This document shows, in pieces, positions 2,864 through 44,827 of a DNA stretch of 64,000 nt (its first letter is position 1; the number at the start of each line of letters is the position of its first letter). Origin of the DNA: Escherichia coli (GTDB taxonomy: Bacteria; Pseudomonadota; Gammaproteobacteria; Enterobacterales; Enterobacteriaceae); the NCBI RefSeq assembly GCF_003334355.1, contig NZ_QOWP01000001.1; one strand, 5' to 3'. The position numbers and the translations under genes were made by a program. A model generated the notes under the pieces. That model ran no database searches and was not told the origin of the DNA. It saw nothing but the letters and a program-made list of their open reading frames with translations.

Positions 2864-3151
2864 TCAATTTTCGAGGCGATAACCGGCCATAAAAAAGCGC
2901 AACGTAGAACAGGAATTATTCTCACGAAAGAAATCCATTACCATCTCTTTATCCAGTCCATAGCGGCGCGTCAGAATACCCGCTTCCCAGGCGCTAAGCT
3001 GGCGATCTCCGGTCTTTTCGTACATCCGGTGTGAGTAGCCTAATACAAAACCGCGTTTATAATCGGCACAGAATTTTGTCACATTAACCGCACTGTCGGC
3101 ATGCGTTGCTTTTAATCCCGCCATTAAGCCTTTACCAAAATGGTTATTCAT
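2864..3151 (-). CDS. yghW: Small conserved protein YghW (function unknown)
   Basis: 95-aa [30 protein letters not shown]...; length and position upstream of the hyb operon match remembered E. coli YghW. Confidence 0.8.
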
Positions 3152-3269
3152 CGTTCACCTCATTCGCTATATATCACCATATATAGCGATATTTTAGGCA
3201 AAGAACGACTTTTGCGCACGCTATTTTTTCATGCTTGTTTAAGACGTAATCCAGTAAGAGATAAACCTA

Positions 3270-4157
3270 TCAGGAGAGATATTTATCGAACCATTTCAGT
3301 GTCCTTTGCCAGGCAAGATCGGCGGCAGATTTGTCATAACGGGGCGTGGAATCATTATGGAATCCGTGATTAACCCCCGGATAGATATACGCCTCATAAA
3401 CCTTATTATTGGCTTTCAACGCCGCCTCGTAAGCAGGCCAGCCCTCGTTGATTCGGGTGTCCAGTTCCGCGAAGTGGAGTAGTAAAGGCGCTTCAATCTT
3501 CGCCACATCGGCAGTGGGTGCCTGACGACCATAAAACGGCACCGCGCAGGCCAGTTCCGGATACGCGACAGCCGCCGCGTTCGATACGCCACCGCCATAG
3601 CAAAATCCGGTAATACCCACTTTGCCTGCCGCTTGCGGATAGCGTTGCATAAACTCAATTGCGGCAAAGAAATCATTCATCAGTTTGGTTGGATCAACCT
3701 GCTGTTGCAGCTCACGACCTTTATCATCATTTCCCGGATAACCTCCAACGGAACTTAAGCCGTCAGGTGCCAGGGCGATATACCCCGCCTTCGCCACTCG
3801 CCGTGCCACATCTTCGATATACGGATTCAGTCCACGATTCTCATGCACCACCACCACGGCTGGCGTTTTGCCGCTCATTTTTGCGGGTTTCACCAGATAA
3901 CCCCGTACCTCGCCGTGACCATTTGGCGAAGGATACGTGATGTACTCAGCAACAATCTCCGGGTCGGTAAACTCTACCTGAGTCGCCAGCGCATAATTTG
4001 GCTTGAGCAAATCAAACAACGCTAATGCCGTCATCCCGCCCACCGCATACTTCGCCGCAAGGTTGAGGAACTCACGTTTCGAGATTTTCCCGTGAGCGTA
4101 ATAGTCGTAGTAATCCAACAACTCTTGTGGGAAATCTTTGGCGGTTAAACGCGGCAT
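3270..4157 (-). CDS. yghX: Dienelactone hydrolase family protein (YghX-like), uninterrupted frame
   Basis: Continuous ORF; chosen start is the ATG at 4157 (MPRLTAKDF...) preceded by GAGGAG about 7 nt upstream; alpha/beta-hydrolase-like GxCxG motif (GFCYGG) and HGF near the C-terminus. Confidence 0.8.
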   Translation of the reverse strand: MPRLTAKDFPQELLDYYDYYAHGKISKREFLNLAAKYAVGGMTALALFDLLKPNYALATQVEFTDPEIVAEYITYPSPNGHGEVRGYLVKPAKMSGKTPAVVVVHENRGLNPYIEDVARRVAKAGYIALAPDGLSSVGGYPGNDDKGRELQQQVDPTKLMNDFFAAIEFMQRYPQAAGKVGITGFCYGGGVSNAAAVAYPELACAVPFYGRQAPTADVAKIEAPLLLHFAELDTRINEGWPAYEAALKANNKVYEAYIYPGVNHGFHNDSTPRYDKSAADLAWQRTLKWFDKYLS

Positions 4158-4313
4158 CGTTGCACTCCTCAACTGGTGTTTTTTTAAGCAAAGCATAAGC
4201 ACGTGTTTTTGCCCAGTTTTTCGTCACTCTGTGAGCCAGACTACGGGATACGCGCTGGCGAATCGCTAAACTAGAAACATTGTTTCGAAATTGAACGGTG
4301 GAAAGGAGAGGTC

Positions 4314-6967: not shown

Positions 6968-6996
6968 ATGCCCGGTTGTGAAAAGCAACCGGGCAT
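6968..6996 (+). terminator. Hairpin downstream of yghA (candidate intrinsic terminator)
   Basis: Inverted repeat ATGCCCGGTTG / CAACCGGGCAT with a 7-nt loop immediately after the yghA stop, preceded by an A-run; the T-run after it is weak. Confidence 0.45.
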
Positions 6997-10565: not shown

Positions 10566-11522
10566 TTAATTCCCCTGCATCGCCCGCATTCTTGCCGCAT
10601 CTTCCCCCGGCGTCACACCGAAGTAACGTTTAAACTCACGGCTAAATTGCGATGCGCTTTCATAGCCGACGCGCATCGCTGCTGCGCTGGCCTTCATGCC
10701 GTCATGGATGATCATCATCCGCGCCTTATGCAGACGGTAATTCTTCAAATACTGCAACGGCGAGGTACTGGTGACAGACTTAAAATTATGGTGGAACGCC
10801 GATACGCTCATGTTGGCTTCTGCCGCCAGTTGCTCGACGCTCAGGTTTTCGGTGTATTTATTCTCAATCCGTTTCAGCACGCGGCTAATCAGACTGAAGT
10901 GAGTCTGGCGACTGACCAGCGCCAGTAACGCGCCGCCGCAAGGTCCGGTCAGCACGTAGTACAGAATTTCGCGGATGATCTGTTTGCCGAGAATACGCGC
11001 ATCCAGTGGTCGCTCCATCACGTCGAGTAACCGCTCCGCCGCGCATAAAATCTCTTCTGATAACGTGGCGGAGTTAATCCCGCTGGCTGCCATCGACGGC
11101 TGGAAATGCTCATCTTCGCCAATGTCCATCAACAGTTCCTGTAACTGCAAAATATCGACATTGAGACGCAACCCTGCCAGCGGCACCTCTGACGTGGCAT
11201 AGGTTTCGCACTCAAACGGCAACGGCACCGTCAGCAGCAGGTATTCATTGGCATCATAACGAAACACGCGTTCATTGATATAACCGATTTTATGCCCGGA
11301 AAAGAGAATTATGATGCCAGGCTCGTACATCACCGGTGTACGTGCGAAAGGCGTCTCGCCATACAACAAACGCACATCGGGCAACAGTTCTGACAAACTA
11401 TTTTCTTTATTTTTCAGTTTATTAACTTTATCCGCCAGCAAGCGGCAAATCTCTTCACGTTTCATATCGCGTAATTTCTTAGGAATAATGCGGCAATTTG
11501 ATTGTGCGCAATTTTGTAGCAT
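10566..11522 (-). CDS. yqhC: AraC-family transcriptional regulator YqhC
   Basis: ORF trimmed to the ATG giving 318 aa ([25 protein letters not shown]...); C-terminal AraC-type helix-turn-helix region. Confidence 0.9.
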
Positions 11523-11544
11523 TTCTCCAGCACTCTGGAGAAAT
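11521..11544. promoter_or_regulatory. 24-bp palindrome in the yqhC/yqhD divergent region (candidate YqhC operator)
   Basis: ATTTCTCCAG-CACT-CTGGAGAAAT, a perfect 10-bp inverted repeat with a 4-bp spacer overlapping the yqhC start codon; a palindrome of this kind is reported as a YqhC binding element for yqhD-dkgA activation (recalled from literature). Confidence 0.6.
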
Positions 11545-11658
11545 AGGCAAGACATTGGCAGAAATGAGCATTGAGAGCCAGGGCGCTGGCGATCACAATG
11601 AAAAACATCAGGCAGATCGTTCTCTGCCCTCATATTGGCCCAGCAAAGGGAGCAAGTA

Positions 11659-12822
11659 ATGAACAACTTTAATCTGCACACCCCAACCCGCATTCTGTTT
11701 GGTAAAGGCGCAATCGCTGGTTTACGCGAACAAATTCCTCACGATGCTCGCGTATTGATTACCTACGGCGGCGGCAGCGTGAAAAAAACCGGCGTTCTCG
11801 ATCAAGTTCTGGATGCCCTGAAAGGCATGGACGTGCTGGAATTTGGCGGTATTGAGCCAAACCCGGCTTATGAAACGCTGATGAACGCCGTGAAACTGGT
11901 TCGCGAACAGAAAGTGACTTTCCTGCTGGCGGTTGGCGGCGGTTCTGTACTGGACGGCACCAAATTTATCGCCGCAGCGGCTAACTATCCGGAAAATATC
12001 GATCCGTGGCACATTCTGCAAACGGGCGGTAAAGAGATTAAAAGCGCCATCCCGATGGGCTGTGTGCTGACGCTGCCAGCAACCGGTTCAGAATCCAACG
12101 CAGGCGCGGTGATCTCCCGTAAAACCACAGGCGACAAGCAGGCGTTCCATTCTGCCCATGTTCAGCCGGTATTTGCCGTGCTCGATCCGGTTTATACCTA
12201 CACCCTGCCGCCGCGTCAGGTGGCTAACGGCGTAGTGGACGCCTTTGTACACACCGTGGAACAGTATGTTACCAAACCGGTTGATGCCAAAATTCAGGAC
12301 CGTTTCGCAGAAGGCATTTTGCTGACGCTAATCGAAGATGGTCCGAAAGCCCTGAAAGAGCCAGAAAACTACGATGTGCGCGCCAACGTCATGTGGGCGG
12401 CGACTCAGGCGCTGAACGGTTTGATTGGCGCTGGCGTACCGCAGGACTGGGCAACGCATATGCTGGGCCACGAACTGACTGCGATGCACGGTCTGGATCA
12501 CGCGCAAACACTGGCTATCGTCCTGCCTGCACTGTGGAATGAAAAACGCGATACCAAGCGCGCTAAGCTGCTGCAATATGCTGAACGCGTCTGGAACATC
12601 ACTGAAGGTTCCGATGATGAGCGTATTGACGCCGCGATTGCCGCAACCCGCAATTTCTTTGAGCAATTAGGCGTGCCGACCCACCTCTCCGACTACGGTC
12701 TGGACGGCAGCTCCATCCCGGCTTTGCTGAAAAAACTGGAAGAGCACGGCATGACCCAACTGGGCGAAAATCATGACATTACGTTGGATGTCAGCCGCCG
12801 TATATACGAAGCCGCCCGCTAA
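11659..12822 (+). CDS. yqhD: NADPH-dependent aldehyde reductase YqhD (iron-type alcohol dehydrogenase family)
   Basis: ORF trimmed to the ATG giving 387 aa ([27 protein letters not shown]...); GGGSVLD motif. Confidence 0.95.
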
Positions 12823-12926
12823 GCTTTTTACGCCTCAAACTTTCGTTTTCGGGCATTTCGTCCAGACTTAAGTTCACAACACCTCACCGGAGCCTGCTCC
12901 GGTGAGTTCATATAAAGGAGGAACGT

Positions 12927-17450: not shown

Positions 17451-17560
17451 TTTGCTTCCAGAAATGATAAAAAAATAATCAAAGGCCGGGGATTATAAGC
17501 CGGAACGAAAGAGAAATCGAAAGGTATTCCATACTCGCCCTCCTCGGGCGAGTATGAAGA

Positions 17561-37885: not shown

Positions 37886-37922
37886 GCCACGATACCGGAT
37901 GGCACTCGCCATCCGGTAATTG

Positions 37923-39627: not shown

Positions 39628-39684
39628 AAACAACATCAGAAGTTGTCCAGCACATGGACAACTTCTGCCAGCTTCACGAAAGCC

Positions 39685-42319: not shown

Positions 42320-44827
42320 GTGGATCAGATGTATAAAAAATTAAAATTAACCACAATAAGCGAATTGATTAAAAATATTTATTGTTCATTATCCGTTATC
42401 ATCATTGGTTGTGCGTCAGCTTATGCCGTTGAATTCAACAAAGATTTAATCGAAGCCGAAGATCGTGAAAACGTTAACCTTTCCCAATTTGAAACTGATG
42501 GCCAATTACCCGTCGGCAAATATTCACTAAGCACTCTGATTAATAATAAGAGGACGCCAATCCACCTTGACCTCCAATGGGTATTAATTGATAACCTAAC
42601 TGCAGTTTGCGTGACACCAGAGCAATTAACATTATTAGGCTTTACTGATGAGATTATTGAAGAGGCTCAGCAAAACCTGATCGATGGTTGTTACCCTATC
42701 GAAAAAGAAAAACAAATTACAACTTATCTCGATAAAGGGAAAATGCAATTATCCATATCTGCACCTCAGGCATGGTTAAAATACAAAGATGCAAACTGGA
42801 CGCCTCCTGAACTTTGGGATCATGGTATTGCTGGGGCATTTCTTGACTACAATTTATATGCCTCTCATTATGCACCACATCAGGGCGATAATTCACAAAA
42901 TATAAGTTCCTATGGGCAGGCTGGGGTTAATCTTGGGGCCTGGCGCCTGCGTACTGATTACCAGTACGATCAGTCATTTAACAATGGCAAAAGCCAGGCG
43001 AACAACCTGGATTTTCCGCGTATTTATTTGTTTCGCCCAATCCCAGCAATTAATGCAAAACTAACTATAGGTCAATACGATACTGAATCCTCTATTTTCG
43101 ACTCTTTCCATTTTTCTGGCGTTTCGTTGAAAAGCGATGAGAATATGTTGCCGCCTGATCTACGTGGTTACGCACCGCAAATCACGGGTGTTGCACAAAC
43201 GAATGCAAAGGTCACTGTCTCACAGAACAACCGTATTATTTATCAAGAAAACGTTCCTCCAGGCCCATTTTCTATTACCAATTTATTCAATACATTACAG
43301 GGGCAACTGGACGTCAAGGTTGAAGAAGAGGACGGGCGCGTCACGCAATGGCAAGTTGCATCTAATAGCATTCCTTATCTGACGCGTAAAGGGCAGATTC
43401 GCTACACTACTGCAATGGGGAAACCGACCAGCGTTGGCGGCGATTCCTTACAACAGCCCTTCTTCTGGACCGGTGAATTCTCATGGGGTTGGCTGAACAA
43501 TGTATCCCTGTATGGTGGTTCAGTATTAACAAACCGTGATTATCAATCCCTGGCTACCGGAGTTGGTTTTAACCTTAACTCGTTGGGCTCATTATCCTTT
43601 GATGTCACGCGATCTGATGCTCAGTTACATAATCAGAATAAAGAAACGGGTTATAGCTACCGTGCTAACTATTCAAAACGTTTTGAATCTACCGGTAGCC
43701 AGCTCACTTTCGCTGGCTACCGTTTCTCTGATAAAAACTTTGTGTCGATGAATGAATATATCAATGACACTAACCATTACACGAATTATCAGAATGAAAA
43801 AGAGAGTTATATTGTCACGTTTAACCAGTATCTTGAATCATTGAGATTAAATACATACGTAAGTCTGGCTCGTAATACTTACTGGGACGCCAGCAGTAAT
43901 GTGAATTATTCATTATCACTTAGCCGCGATTTTGATATCGGCCCATTAAAAAACGTATCCACCTCACTAACATTTAGCCGAATAAACTGGGAAGATGACA
44001 ACCAGGATCAACTGTACCTAAATATTTCAATTCCCTGGGGAACCAGTAGAACATTGAGCTATGGTATGCAACGAAATCAGGATAACAACATTTCGCATAC
44101 TGCTTCGTGGTATGACTCTTCCGATCGAAATAATTCCTGGAGCGTTTCTGCTTCAGGCGACAATGACGAATTTAAAGATATGGAGGCGTCACTGCGCGCC
44201 AGTTATCAGCATAATACCGAGAACGGTCGTCTCTATCTCTCCGGTACATCACAGCGGGATAGCTACTATTCTCTGAATGCCAGTTGGAACGGTTCATTCA
44301 CTGCAACTCGCCACGGCGCCGCTTTCCATGACTATAGTGGTAGTGCTGACTCGCGTTTTATGATCGACGCAGACGGCGCTGAAGATATTCCGTTGAATAA
44401 TAAACGCGCGGTAACTAATCGGTATGGCATCGGAGTTATTCCATCAGTCAGCAGTTACATAACAACATCATTAAGCGTTGATACCCGAAATCTTCCAGAA
44501 AATGTGGATATCGAAAACTCGGTTATCACCACCACCTTAACCGAAGGTGCTATTGGCTACGCCAAACTTGATACCCGCAAGGGCTATCAAATCATGGGGG
44601 TTATTCGCCTGGCAGATGGTAGTCACCCACCACTGGGGATTAGCGTAAAAGATGAAACCAGCCACAAAGAATTAGGACTTGTTGCTGATGGCGGCTTTGT
44701 ATACCTCAACGGCATTCAGGATGACAGCAAACTTACTTTACGCTGGGGTGACAAATCTTGCTTTATTCAACCACCCAAGAGCAGCAACTTAACCACCGGA
44801 ACGGTGATTTTACCGTGTATTAGCTAA
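42320..44827 (+). CDS. yqiG: Fimbrial outer-membrane usher YqiG, uninterrupted
   Basis: 835-aa ORF from a GTG (first ATG at 42329); usher-sized with usher-like conserved region; continuous frame with no inserted element. Confidence 0.88.
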   Translation: MDQMYKKLKLTTISELIKNIYCSLSVIIIGCASAYAVEFNKDLIEAEDRENVNLSQFETDGQLPVGKYSLSTLINNKRTPIHLDLQWVLIDNLTAVCVTPEQLTLLGFTDEIIEEAQQNLIDGCYPIEKEKQITTYLDKGKMQLSISAPQAWLKYKDANWTPPELWDHGIAGAFLDYNLYASHYAPHQGDNSQNISSYGQAGVNLGAWRLRTDYQYDQSFNNGKSQANNLDFPRIYLFRPIPAINAKLTIGQYDTESSIFDSFHFSGVSLKSDENMLPPDLRGYAPQITGVAQTNAKVTVSQNNRIIYQENVPPGPFSITNLFNTLQGQLDVKVEEEDGRVTQWQVASNSIPYLTRKGQIRYTTAMGKPTSVGGDSLQQPFFWTGEFSWGWLNNVSLYGGSVLTNRDYQSLATGVGFNLNSLGSLSFDVTRSDAQLHNQNKETGYSYRANYSKRFESTGSQLTFAGYRFSDKNFVSMNEYINDTNHYTNYQNEKESYIVTFNQYLESLRLNTYVSLARNTYWDASSNVNYSLSLSRDFDIGPLKNVSTSLTFSRINWEDDNQDQLYLNISIPWGTSRTLSYGMQRNQDNNISHTASWYDSSDRNNSWSVSASGDNDEFKDMEASLRASYQHNTENGRLYLSGTSQRDSYYSLNASWNGSFTATRHGAAFHDYSGSADSRFMIDADGAEDIPLNNKRAVTNRYGIGVIPSVSSYITTSLSVDTRNLPENVDIENSVITTTLTEGAIGYAKLDTRKGYQIMGVIRLADGSHPPLGISVKDETSHKELGLVADGGFVYLNGIQDDSKLTLRWGDKSCFIQPPKSSNLTTGTVILPCIS

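Follow-up and report, generated by a model that had tools for sequence, protein, structure and literature searches.

The spacer between the divergently oriented genes yqhC and yqhD of Escherichia coli contains a perfect inverted repeat, and this locus raises the question whether the repeat is the operator of the regulator YqhC, as suggested in the initial annotation, or whether its two arms serve different functions. The palindrome ATTTCTCCAG-CACT-CTGGAGAAAT occupies positions 11521 to 11544 of the window, i.e. of the whole stretch of 64,000 nucleotides that was analysed, and consists of two 10-nt arms which are 100% complementary and separated by a gap of 4 nt. Coordinates, arms and the CACT loop were found exactly as initially described, and the observation as such is confirmed. 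The palindrome is present as a single copy in the window, even with three mismatches allowed, and in 0 of 100 shuffles. A perfect palindrome of such size is, taken alone, not decisive as proof of significance. Based on first-order Markov simulations about 0.8 palindromes with arms of at least 10 bp and a loop of up to 10 nt are expected per 64 kb, and eight distinct ones were detected in the window. The palindrome is regarded as significant because it is conserved, being located at the same position in all 77 orthologous yqhC-yqhD spacers, which represent 77 species of the Enterobacteriaceae and form the conservation set used here. Within E. coli the spacer region was found in 5413 of 5426 complete genomes.

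As a proposed target of YqhC the palindrome is already known. A ‘24-bp palindrome’ of two 10-bp units was proposed in 2010 as the YqhC target together with a ‘SoxS-like’ sequence (Lee et al. 2010, J Bacteriol 192:4205, as cited in PMC6115493 and PMC10991953). YqhC has been described in the literature as the activator of yqhD-dkgA; the purified protein shifts a 151-bp probe (window 11508 to 11658) which includes the palindrome (PMC8262776), and genomic SELEX revealed a single YqhC peak in the yqhC-yqhD spacer (PMC8249747). A paper on glyoxal in Pseudomonas from 2025 contains no binding-site information. The initial interpretation as a YqhC operator is partly supported: YqhC does shift the fragment containing the palindrome, whereas a single symmetric operator is not supported, given the unequal arms described below. 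The suggested autoregulation is in line with the literature, since experiments have hinted at a self-regulation of YqhC and yqhC expression was raised in strains with hyperactive YqhC (both PMC8262776).

The gene yqhC (minus strand, 10566 to 11465) encodes an AraC/XylS-family regulator of 299 amino acids plus stop. The Pfam domains PF06719, PF12833 and PF00165 are assigned to proteins identical to YqhC, and its residues from about 185 to 298 matched AdpA, GadX, MarA, AraC, Rns and SoxS in a PDB sequence search. The target gene yqhD (plus strand, 11659 to 12822) encodes an NADPH-dependent aldehyde reductase. The initial annotation had furthermore placed the palindrome over the yqhC start codon. 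This overlap holds in the annotation of strain K-12 MG1655 only, in which yqhC has 318 codons for amino acids and begins at the ATG at 11520 to 11522 (minus strand), a non-conserved codon located upstream of the mapped transcription start. Position 11521 (A) is T in 44 of the 77 species and position 11520 is unconstrained; between this ATG and Met20 of the K-12 annotation an in-frame stop is found in 57 of 77 species, and only seven keep an in-frame start at the site of this ATG. The codon of Met20 (11463 to 11465, minus strand) is ATG in 77 of 77 species. The RefSeq PGAP annotation places the start at 11465 (299 amino acids) in the loci L081 and L082, and the yqhC orthologues are mostly annotated with 299 amino acids as well. 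This conserved start lies 56 bp from the palindrome. Thus, the K-12 gene model of yqhC is probably 19 codons too long, and constructs fused at the annotated ATG consequently remove the native -10 hexamer and the start site.

The location of the palindrome in a shared divergent promoter region was borne out, and the element is under strong purifying selection across the 77 species. Its centre lies at about -73.5/-74.5 relative to the yqhD start site and at about -38.5 relative to that of yqhC. No indels occur between 11501 and 11608 in any of the 77 species. Invariant or nearly invariant are TTCTCCAG, AG.AA, GGCAA, CAG, GCATTGAG and both CACAAT boxes, whereas the loop and the inner right arm vary, and neighbouring spacer columns are close to saturation with substitutions in contrast to the invariant core. 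The left-arm core TTCTCCAG (11523 to 11530; CTGGAGAA on the minus strand) carries 2.0 bits at all eight positions (77/77). By contrast, the loop and the two innermost bases of the right arm (11531 to 11536) vary without compensating changes in the left arm, positions 11531 to 11535 carrying 0.2 to 0.85 bits. The outer right arm GGAGAAAT (11537 to 11544, plus strand) is conserved again, although G11538 is replaced by T in 24 of the 77 species, once more without a compensating change.

The core TTCTCC-N8-GGAGAA is retained in all 77 Enterobacteriaceae, the perfect form with ten of ten pairs being restricted to Escherichia and two Phytobacter/Kosakonia loci. Pairs 2 to 6 and 8 of the palindrome are complementary in 72 to 77 species, and pairs 1, 7, 9 and 10 in 21, 53, 67 and 46 species, respectively. 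Covariation between the arms was not found in this set (pairing in 83.2% of cells, against 83.0% in shuffles). The flank GGCAAGACA beside the right arm hardly varies, whereas its mirror flank at 11511 to 11520 is weakly conserved (0.0 to 1.3 bits), and mirror-symmetric constraint on both half-sites and their flanks was not found in the 77 species. We also rejected a complete YqhC box in mirror orientation to the left, whose distal half (11511 to 11520) is weakly conserved.

The left arm coincides with a predicted promoter element. An unbiased scan of both strands in all 77 species revealed only two positionally conserved sigma-70 candidates, one of them being the known yqhD promoter (77/77), and the next-best candidate reached just 25 of 77 species. 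The candidate for yqhC, TGGAGA (11529 to 11524)-17-CACAAT (11506 to 11501) on the minus strand, is present in 76 of 77 species. Its -35 hexamer lies within the invariant left-arm core and matches a TTGACA-like hexamer at four of six positions. The -10 hexamer (11501 to 11506) takes the form CAC[A/T][A/C]T across species, always 17 bp from TGGAGA (76/77), and its positions 11501, 11505 and 11506 (T6, A2 and C1) are invariant. In a supplement on differential RNA sequencing (dRNA-seq) with enrichment of 5'-triphosphate ends, Romero et al. 2014 list the TAP-enriched reverse-strand start RVS_(II)-3153213 (U00096.2 position 3153213). Converted from U00096.2 coordinates by a calibration with the 43 start sites that fall into the window, it corresponds to 11494/11495 (minus strand), 6-7 nt downstream of the -10 hexamer, which leaves a leader of about 29 nt up to the codon of Met20. 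This start was assigned to ‘Class II’, i.e. TAP-enriched and without a visible coverage step, in uninduced cells under one condition (Romero et al. 2014). The Cappable-seq and ROSE supplements provided no usable start site near the yqhC-yqhD locus. Hexamer, 17-bp spacer, -10 element and a mapped 5' end 6-8 nt downstream are all found in this arrangement. The left arm is invariant over 8 bp, which is stricter than expected from a -35 hexamer alone.

Other promoters on the minus strand were considered as well. Candidates upstream of the palindrome were rejected since they are shared by 15 of 77 species at most. A sigma-54 promoter was rejected by eye, as the GGCAC-N5-TGC contained in the genus consensus deviates by one base from the strict GG-N10-GC spacing and is absent in E. 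coli. A GFP fusion at the annotated ATG (fragment 11520 to 11738) gave a signal that depended on the YqhC variant (PMC8262776), and this fragment does not contain the proposed yqhC -10 hexamer and start site. At least on a plasmid, part of the transcription may thus originate upstream of the palindrome.

The right arm continues into a longer conserved block on the plus strand. The deeply conserved core box AGAAATAGGCAA (AGrAwTrGGCAA; 11539 to 11550) has one exact occurrence in the 64-kb window and belongs to an asymmetric block (11537 to 11576), starting with the outer right arm, of tandem units of about 10.5 bp, AGAAATAGGCA, AGACATTGGCA and AGAAATGAGCA, followed by TTGAGA. The three units of 10-11 bp lie at 11539 to 11570 and are spaced by 11 and 10 bp; alternatively, the block can be parsed into two 19-bp direct repeats, R1 (11537 to 11555) and R2 (11558 to 11576), which are 21 bp apart. 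GGCAA, CAG and GCATTGAG are invariant within it in the 77 species. The motifs GGAGAAATrGGCA and GCAGrAATGwGCA, 21 bp apart, are both conserved, and the same arrangement was detected in the loci L083, L084, L088 and L090. The block runs unbroken into the -35 hexamer of yqhD and occupies nearly all of the 41 bp between the -35 hexamers of the two genes. The yqhD promoter comprises TTGAGA (11571 to 11576, conserved in 77/77 species) and a non-consensus, conserved -10 hexamer CACAAT (11594 to 11599), both on the plus strand and both reported in the literature. Its transcription start was reportedly assigned to the C at 11606 (Lee et al. 2010, as cited in later literature), and the forward start FWD_(III)-3153325 (U00096.2 position 3153325; Romero et al. 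2014) corresponds to the A at 11607. The calibrated starts of both genes (11494/11495 and 11607) fall 6-8 nt downstream of their CACAAT boxes. A regulator with two helix-turn-helix (HTH) motifs, helix-phased repeats about 21 bp apart and a proximal repeat abutting a promoter with a weak core are combined here in the manner of class II activation at direct repeats. Based on its sequence the block 11537 to 11576 is predicted to be the main YqhC binding region. A marbox, to which the label ‘SoxS-like’ would refer, was rejected: the pattern AYnGCACnnWnnRYYAAAY has no match with up to three mismatches between 11466 and 11658, and it is not enriched in the window (122 matches versus 137.5 expected).

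Distant relatives of YqhC were retrieved from a library clustered at 50% identity, the initial protein homology search having given matches of at least 85% identity only. A position weight matrix of 11537 to 11576 located the block upstream of eight of nine relatives with 45-57% identity (shuffle p of at most 0.035), in each case pointing toward the adjacent reductase gene. With few exceptions the loci, those of the 45-57% relatives included, have one exact copy of AGrAwTrGGCAA in their regulatory spacer. No counterpart of the left arm was found beside these relatives, which keep the right-arm half with GGCAA; the symmetric element is thus absent next to proteins that may not be strict orthologues. 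The portable box of the YqhC family accordingly appears, as judged from these spacers, to be the asymmetric AGrAwTrGGCAA array and not the palindrome, and the left arm is probably not an ancestral part of it.

Taken together, the palindrome is probably a composite of two back-to-back signals that lie between divergent, activator-dependent sigma-70 promoters, with a YqhC array adjoining the -35 hexamer of yqhD. Both promoters would follow almost the same design (TkGAGA-17-CACAAT). The left arm would represent the -35 region of the yqhC promoter, and the right arm the promoter-distal end of the asymmetric, helically phased array of about 40 bp (11537 to 11576) which abuts the yqhD -35 hexamer. 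YqhC, which is of the AraC/XylS type with two HTH motifs per monomer, presumably binds as a dimer to R1 and R2, the direct repeats spaced by 21 bp, and would activate yqhD from there in a class II manner. From the same position it may influence the adjacent yqhC promoter, which would result in autoregulation. The mirror similarity of the left arm (CTGGAGAAA on both strands) is under selection within the Enterobacteriaceae, and it probably allows a DNA-reading head of YqhC or region 4 of the RNA polymerase sigma factor, possibly in competition, to use the yqhC -35 region. The conservation pattern, the promoter geometry, the start sites and the binding of YqhC to a fragment of this region are established by the present data or the literature, whereas the bases contacted by YqhC, its stoichiometry and the sign of the autoregulation are inferred.

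A single two-fold symmetric operator, on which a YqhC dimer would occupy equivalent arms as the main site for both yqhD and yqhC, seems unlikely. AraC-family dimers such as RhaS can bind inverted half-sites, and AraC itself tolerates an altered orientation of its half-sites. The palindrome is perfect in Escherichia, complementarity is retained in at least 72 of 77 species at six of its ten pairs (2-6 and 8), the fragment shifted by YqhC includes it (PMC8262776), and later papers credit Lee et al. 2010 with a proposal that comprises such a target (PMC6115493 and PMC10991953). However, the left arm is invariant whereas the right arm varies at four to five positions without compensation, and the flanks are asymmetric, with GGCAAGACA nearly invariant and 11511 to 11520 weak. 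Relatives of 45-57% identity keep the right-arm half and GGCAA without a left arm. Furthermore, a -35 hexamer backed by a mapped start site falls within the left arm, and the centre of symmetry precedes the yqhD start by about 74 bp, too far for activation without the conserved block that reaches its -35 hexamer.

A variant in which both arrangements are used is rather improbable as well, i.e. a loop-less, AraC-style ‘light switch’ in which the YqhC dimer would move between inverted and direct half-sites in response to aldehyde. Without aldehyde the dimer would sit on the left arm and R1, covering the yqhC -35 hexamer (autorepression) and leaving that of yqhD free; under aldehyde stress one subunit would move from the left arm to R2, by which yqhD would be activated and the yqhC promoter freed or stimulated. 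If true, this would account for the mirrored first box unit that was added over the yqhC -35 hexamer in the Enterobacteriaceae, for an invariance of the left arm beyond what a -35 element requires, and for the higher yqhC expression with hyperactive YqhC variants.

It is very unlikely that the palindrome serves as the operator of a different dimeric regulator over the yqhC -35 hexamer, for instance another repressor or the factor responsible for the reported repression of yqhC and yqhD by cAMP-CRP. We know of no candidate protein for this role. The left arm (8/8 positions, 77/77 species) is under stricter constraint than the yqhD -35 hexamer or the YqhC box, the centre of the palindrome at about -38.5 from the yqhC start is typical of repressors and class II activators, and negative control of both yqhC and yqhD by CRP has been described in a review. 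However, inspection of the arms by eye revealed no CRP-like TGTGA-N6-TCACA. The right arm moreover passes without interruption into the YqhC-family box, which accompanies YqhC-like regulators in distant genomes, and YqhC itself binds the spacer according to genomic SELEX (PMC8249747) and EMSA (PMC8262776).

It is highly improbable that the palindrome acts as a hairpin in the RNA of an extended yqhC leader, hiding GGAG and the annotated ATG and thereby controlling translation. The minus-strand RNA does fold into a 10-bp hairpin (minimum free energy of -20.1 kcal/mol for 81 nt, z = -2.4), GGAG precedes the annotated ATG by 2 nt and the GFP fusion at this ATG gave a signal (PMC8262776). Yet the palindrome is not part of the mapped yqhC mRNA because the start at 11494/11495 lies downstream of it, most species lack the annotated ATG or have it out of frame, and the arms lack covariation, G11538T breaking the stem uncompensated in 24 species; an Rfam search gave no match at E of at most 1. 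A chance palindrome without function of its own, compatible with the expectation of about 0.8 perfect ones per 64 kb, is effectively refuted by the fixed position and the invariant core in 77 species.

The element is identical with the target that later papers attribute to Lee et al. 2010, with the same locus, palindrome, proposed activation of yqhD-dkgA by bound YqhC and yqhD promoter TTGAGA/CACAAT. Beyond this proposal, as far as it is cited there, the arms are found to be non-equivalent and the left arm is assigned to the yqhC -35 region; the conserved YqhC box appears asymmetric and reaches the yqhD -35 hexamer, and the label ‘SoxS-like’ fails the marbox consensus.

Among known systems, araI (I1-I2) at araBAD with the divergent araC consists of direct-repeat half-sites about 21 bp apart, the proximal one overlapping the -35 hexamer of the target. 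As in this system, the gene of the regulator YqhC is divergent from its target, direct repeats are spaced by about 21 bp with the proximal one overlapping the target -35 hexamer, and the regulator's own promoter would also be controlled, this class being predicted for the YqhC site from its sequence. In contrast to araI, neither a distant O2-type site nor a DNA loop is evident at yqhC-yqhD, just about 112 bp separate the two back-to-back promoters, and the sensing domain of YqhC is PF06719 (AraC_N) instead of the arabinose-binding cupin of AraC. The asymmetric YqhC box and the two-HTH AraC-type domain, which aligns with MarA and SoxS, resemble the marbox of MarA, SoxS and Rob, an asymmetric 20-bp site bound by a monomer, but YqhC possesses a large N-terminal domain, and the site predicted for it is a multi-unit array and not one 20-bp box. 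The inverted sites of the RhaS/RhaR type, with half-sites of about 17 bp that are about 16 bp apart, offer a precedent for symmetric reading next to a -35 hexamer; unlike these, the arms at yqhC-yqhD comprise 10 bp with a 4-bp gap, are unequally conserved and lose their symmetry in distant relatives.

The yqhC promoter, whose position was called unknown in a paper from 2021, can be placed at TGGAGA-17-CACAAT with its start at 11494/11495. Aldehyde biosensors are commonly built on YqhC and the yqhD promoter, and both are hit repeatedly when strains are evolved to tolerate furfural, glutaraldehyde or inhibitors from lignocellulose (literature including PMC8262776). The refinements presented here are practical rather than conceptual and leave the general picture of AraC-family regulation unchanged, but telling the bases of the activator site from core promoter elements matters for engineering the YqhC/yqhD promoter.

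In this part of the E. coli chromosome the gene order is metC-yghB-yqhC/yqhD-dkgA-yqhG, and window coordinates are converted into those of MG1655 (U00096.3) by adding 3,143,696. The perfect 10-bp inverted repeat that the initial annotation reported for the yqhC/yqhD divergent region is present: positions 11521-11544 read ATTTCTCCAG-CACT-CTGGAGAAAT, two fully complementary 10-nt arms separated by 4 nt, and no second copy occurs in the window with up to three mismatches tolerated. Many E. coli genomes match the surrounding 261 bases at 100% identity, and the palindrome region was found in 5413 of 5426 complete genomes of the species. First-order Markov simulations predict about 0.8 palindromes of such size per 64 kb, while eight distinct ones occur in the window, the majority with the appearance of terminators. 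Since size alone is too common to be meaningful, the argument for a function depends on conservation.

The perfect palindromes of the window, about ten times as numerous as expected by chance, include five others with arms of at least 10 bp and loops of at most 10 nt (6968-6996, 17530-17556, 37893-37918, 39638-39666 and 43693-43722), which are probably mostly terminators or REP-like elements. The palindrome at 3164-3189 (TCGCTATATATCACCATATATAGCGA; 10-bp arms, 6-nt loop, AT-centred) is located between the - strand ORFs 2864-3151 and 3270-4202 and has the look of an operator more than that of a terminator.

Scanning a single genome per species gave 80 Enterobacteriaceae loci (YqhC identity 78-98%), with yqhD divergent to yqhC in 79, and 77 complete regulatory regions were aligned. 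The 108-bp core 11501-11608, which extends from the yqhC -10 up to the start site of yqhD, is free of indels in all 77 species despite substitution saturation in many columns. Identical throughout are positions 11501, 11505-06 and 11523-30 (TTCTCCAG) on the side of the yqhC promoter and left arm, positions 11539-40, 11542-43, 11546-50 (GGCAA), 11559-61 (CAG), 11565 and 11568-75 (GCATTGAG) in the array containing the right arm, and 11595-99 in the yqhD -10. Near-random columns lie in between, e.g. 11496-99, 11511, 11520, 11532 and 11578-87. Both promoters and the array are held at rigid distances from one another.

Arm pairs 1 to 10 are complementary in 21, 72, 77, 74, 77, 77, 53, 72, 67 and 46 of the 77 species, respectively. 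Apart from three species in which both bases of pair 1 are changed (to G..C), each change affects one side only, either in the right arm or at the outermost base. Paired cells amounted to 83.2% compared with 83.0% in shuffles, and the covariation score of the arms in the 77 species was equalled by 45 of 500 shuffles. By its conservation, 11521-11544 is a real and constrained element, though not in its capacity as a palindrome: arm variation is unequal and one-sided, and pairing is no better than in shuffles. Selection acts on each arm's own sequence and holds the left arm more strictly. The conservation in orthologous spacers applies to the element, but the perfect 10/10 form is limited to Escherichia and two Phytobacter/Kosakonia loci, the latter with G..C ends.

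All -35/-10 combinations were scored on both strands in every species, the criterion being retention of the same alignment position. Just two promoters were positionally conserved, that of yqhD (77/77) and a - strand candidate (76/77), the next best reaching 25/77. Papers citing Lee et al. 2010 give the yqhD promoter as -35 TTGAGA, -10 CACAAT and initiation at C, which corresponds to 11571-11576, 11594-11599 and C11606 on the + strand. The - strand candidate, assigned to yqhC, whose promoter position was stated as unknown in 2021 (PMC8262776), has its -35 TGGAGA at 11529..11524, inside the left arm, and its -10 CAC[A/T][A/C]T at 11506..11501, with a 17-bp spacer in all cases. Both promoters share the unusual -10 CACAAT, similar -35s and 17-bp spacers, and the control region is roughly mirror-symmetric in its core promoter elements.

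This prediction could be checked against published dRNA-seq data: the start sites that Romero et al. 2014 tabulate in their supplement (BW25113, reference U00096.2) include RVS_(II)-3153213 and FWD_(III)-3153325. With the 43 entries of this table that lie inside the window as calibration, the relation window = coordinate - 3,141,718 suits the forward entries (+1 purine in 13/17) and coordinate - 3,141,719 the reverse entries (+1 purine in 20/26). The start sites are thereby placed at 11494/11495 (- strand) for yqhC and at 11607 (+ strand) for yqhD, each 6-8 nt downstream of its own CACAAT box. The one-base shift of the reverse entries (+1 purine in 20/26 vs 6/26) likely reflects a strand-specific off-by-one in the table. 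The yqhC entry belongs to "Class II" (TAP-enriched without a visible coverage step), which is what a weak promoter should give when the cells are not induced. Between yqhD and dkgA the table has a forward start at 3154594, marked there as a RegulonDB site, which corresponds to A12876 and precedes by 7 nt a GC-rich, perfect palindrome at 12883-12906 (CTCACCGGAGCCTGCTCCGGTGAG); dkgA therefore seems to have its own promoter and a strong hairpin at the extreme 5' end of its leader.

The yqhC start at 11494/11495 leaves the palindrome and the annotated ATG outside the yqhC mRNA, whose leader to Met20 (K-12 numbering) measures about 29 nt. The overlap with the yqhC start codon claimed by the initial annotation is true only of the MG1655-annotated ATG (11522..11520; 318 aa). 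Its base A11521 is a T in 44/77 species and 11520 is unconstrained; an in-frame stop lies between this ATG and Met20 in 57/77 species, and an in-frame start is kept there in only seven. The Met20 ATG (11465..11463) is present in 77/77, usually with GGAG 8-11 nt upstream, and PGAP places the start at 11465, giving 299 aa, the length of most database YqhC orthologues. Since the annotated ATG is unconserved and upstream of the published start site, and Met20 is kept in all species and used by PGAP, the MG1655 model (b3010) probably includes 19 codons too many at its start (region 11463-11522, - strand).

The right arm runs on into a larger conserved block. A repeat search revealed three tandem units, AGAAATAGGCA / AGACATTGGCA / AGAAATGAGCA, at spacings of 11 and 10 bp and directly followed by the yqhD -35; alternatively, the same stretch can be parsed as a pair of direct repeats, each of 19 bp and spaced 21 bp apart, GGAGAAATAGGCAAGACAT (R1, 11537-11555) and GCAGAAATGAGCATTGAGA (R2, 11558-11576). 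For a deeper comparison, full-length YqhC relatives of 45-57% identity were taken from a 50%-clustered library, and their contigs were retrieved. A PWM of 11537-11576 detected the block upstream of 8/9 relatives (shuffle p <= 0.035), always oriented to the neighbouring gene, for example at positions 887-926 (contig L083), ~2371-2410 (L084), ~141-180 (L090; GCAGGATTAGGCAAGACATCGGCAGGAAT) and ~1963-2002 (L091/L092). In L083, GAACGAATAGGCAAAACACGGGCAGCTTCGTGCATTGAAG is followed by ATCACAAT with the spacing of E. coli. The common core AGrAwTrGGCAA occurs once per spacer in nearly every locus, and the 64-kb window has a single exact copy of it (11539-11550). No counterpart of the left arm was detected in any of these distant loci. 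Their identifiable neighbours belong to three unrelated reductase families, Fe-ADH (L083), Zn-ADH (L084) and short-chain dehydrogenase (L091, L092), which suggests that regulator and box form a portable module joined to differing aldehyde or carbonyl reductases.

YqhC itself comprises a standard two-HTH AraC-type domain and the N-terminal domain PF06719. The hypothesis that the palindrome is a YqhC target has been published before: as cited in PMC6115493 and PMC10991953, Lee et al. 2010 proposed a 24-bp palindrome of two 10-bp units plus a SoxS-like sequence. The marbox consensus has no match with up to three mismatches in the yqhC-yqhD spacer, so "SoxS-like" denotes a loose resemblance at most. 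Binding is demonstrated at the fragment level, as genomic SELEX yielded a single YqhC peak in this spacer (PMC8249747), and YqhC shifted a primer-made probe (Merchel Piovesan Pereira et al. 2021, PMC8262776) that maps to 11508-11658 and includes the entire palindrome. For the palindrome itself, binding by YqhC is putative. Strains with hyperactive YqhC showed increased yqhC expression, termed self-regulatory capacity (PMC8262776). In that study a GFP fusion at the annotated yqhC ATG yielded a signal that varied with the YqhC variant, although the construct does not include the -10 or the start site proposed for yqhC in this analysis; the signal might stem from read-through on the plasmid, from a minor start further upstream, or from initiation specific to induction.

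The 41 bp between the two -35 hexamers (11530-11570) consist of 4-5 variable bases followed by the conserved asymmetric array. Relative to the yqhD start, the right arm covers -71 to -62, R1 about -69 to -51 and R2 about -48 to -30; relative to the yqhC start, the palindrome is centred at about -38.5. This layout resembles the direct-repeat class II arrangement for AraC-type activation, as in araI1-I2. Given the array geometry and the -35 in the left arm, a composite element, with the left arm as yqhC -35 and the right arm as distal end of the YqhC array, was chosen as the best explanation and is rather probable.

A single symmetric YqhC operator seems unlikely: six arm pairs keep their complementarity in nearly all species, and the invariance of the left arm exceeds what a -35 requires, but constraint and flanks are asymmetric and distant relatives lack the left arm. 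Somewhat more doubtful is a switch of the AraC kind, where one subunit of YqhC would shuttle between left arm and R2, and a second protein on the palindrome is improbable. An RNA hairpin is very improbable, since the well-folding structure predicted for the - strand RNA is contradicted by the mapped yqhC start site, the lack of covariation between the arms, the unconserved annotated ATG and the lack of an Rfam match. Chance is excluded by the conservation with near certainty.

The composite element builds on observed conservation, geometry, start sites and fragment binding. A YqhC dimer would presumably occupy the direct repeats, the bases contacted and the direction of autoregulation being putative. 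The mirror similarity of the arms would be specific to the Enterobacteriaceae and may couple YqhC occupancy to the yqhC promoter.
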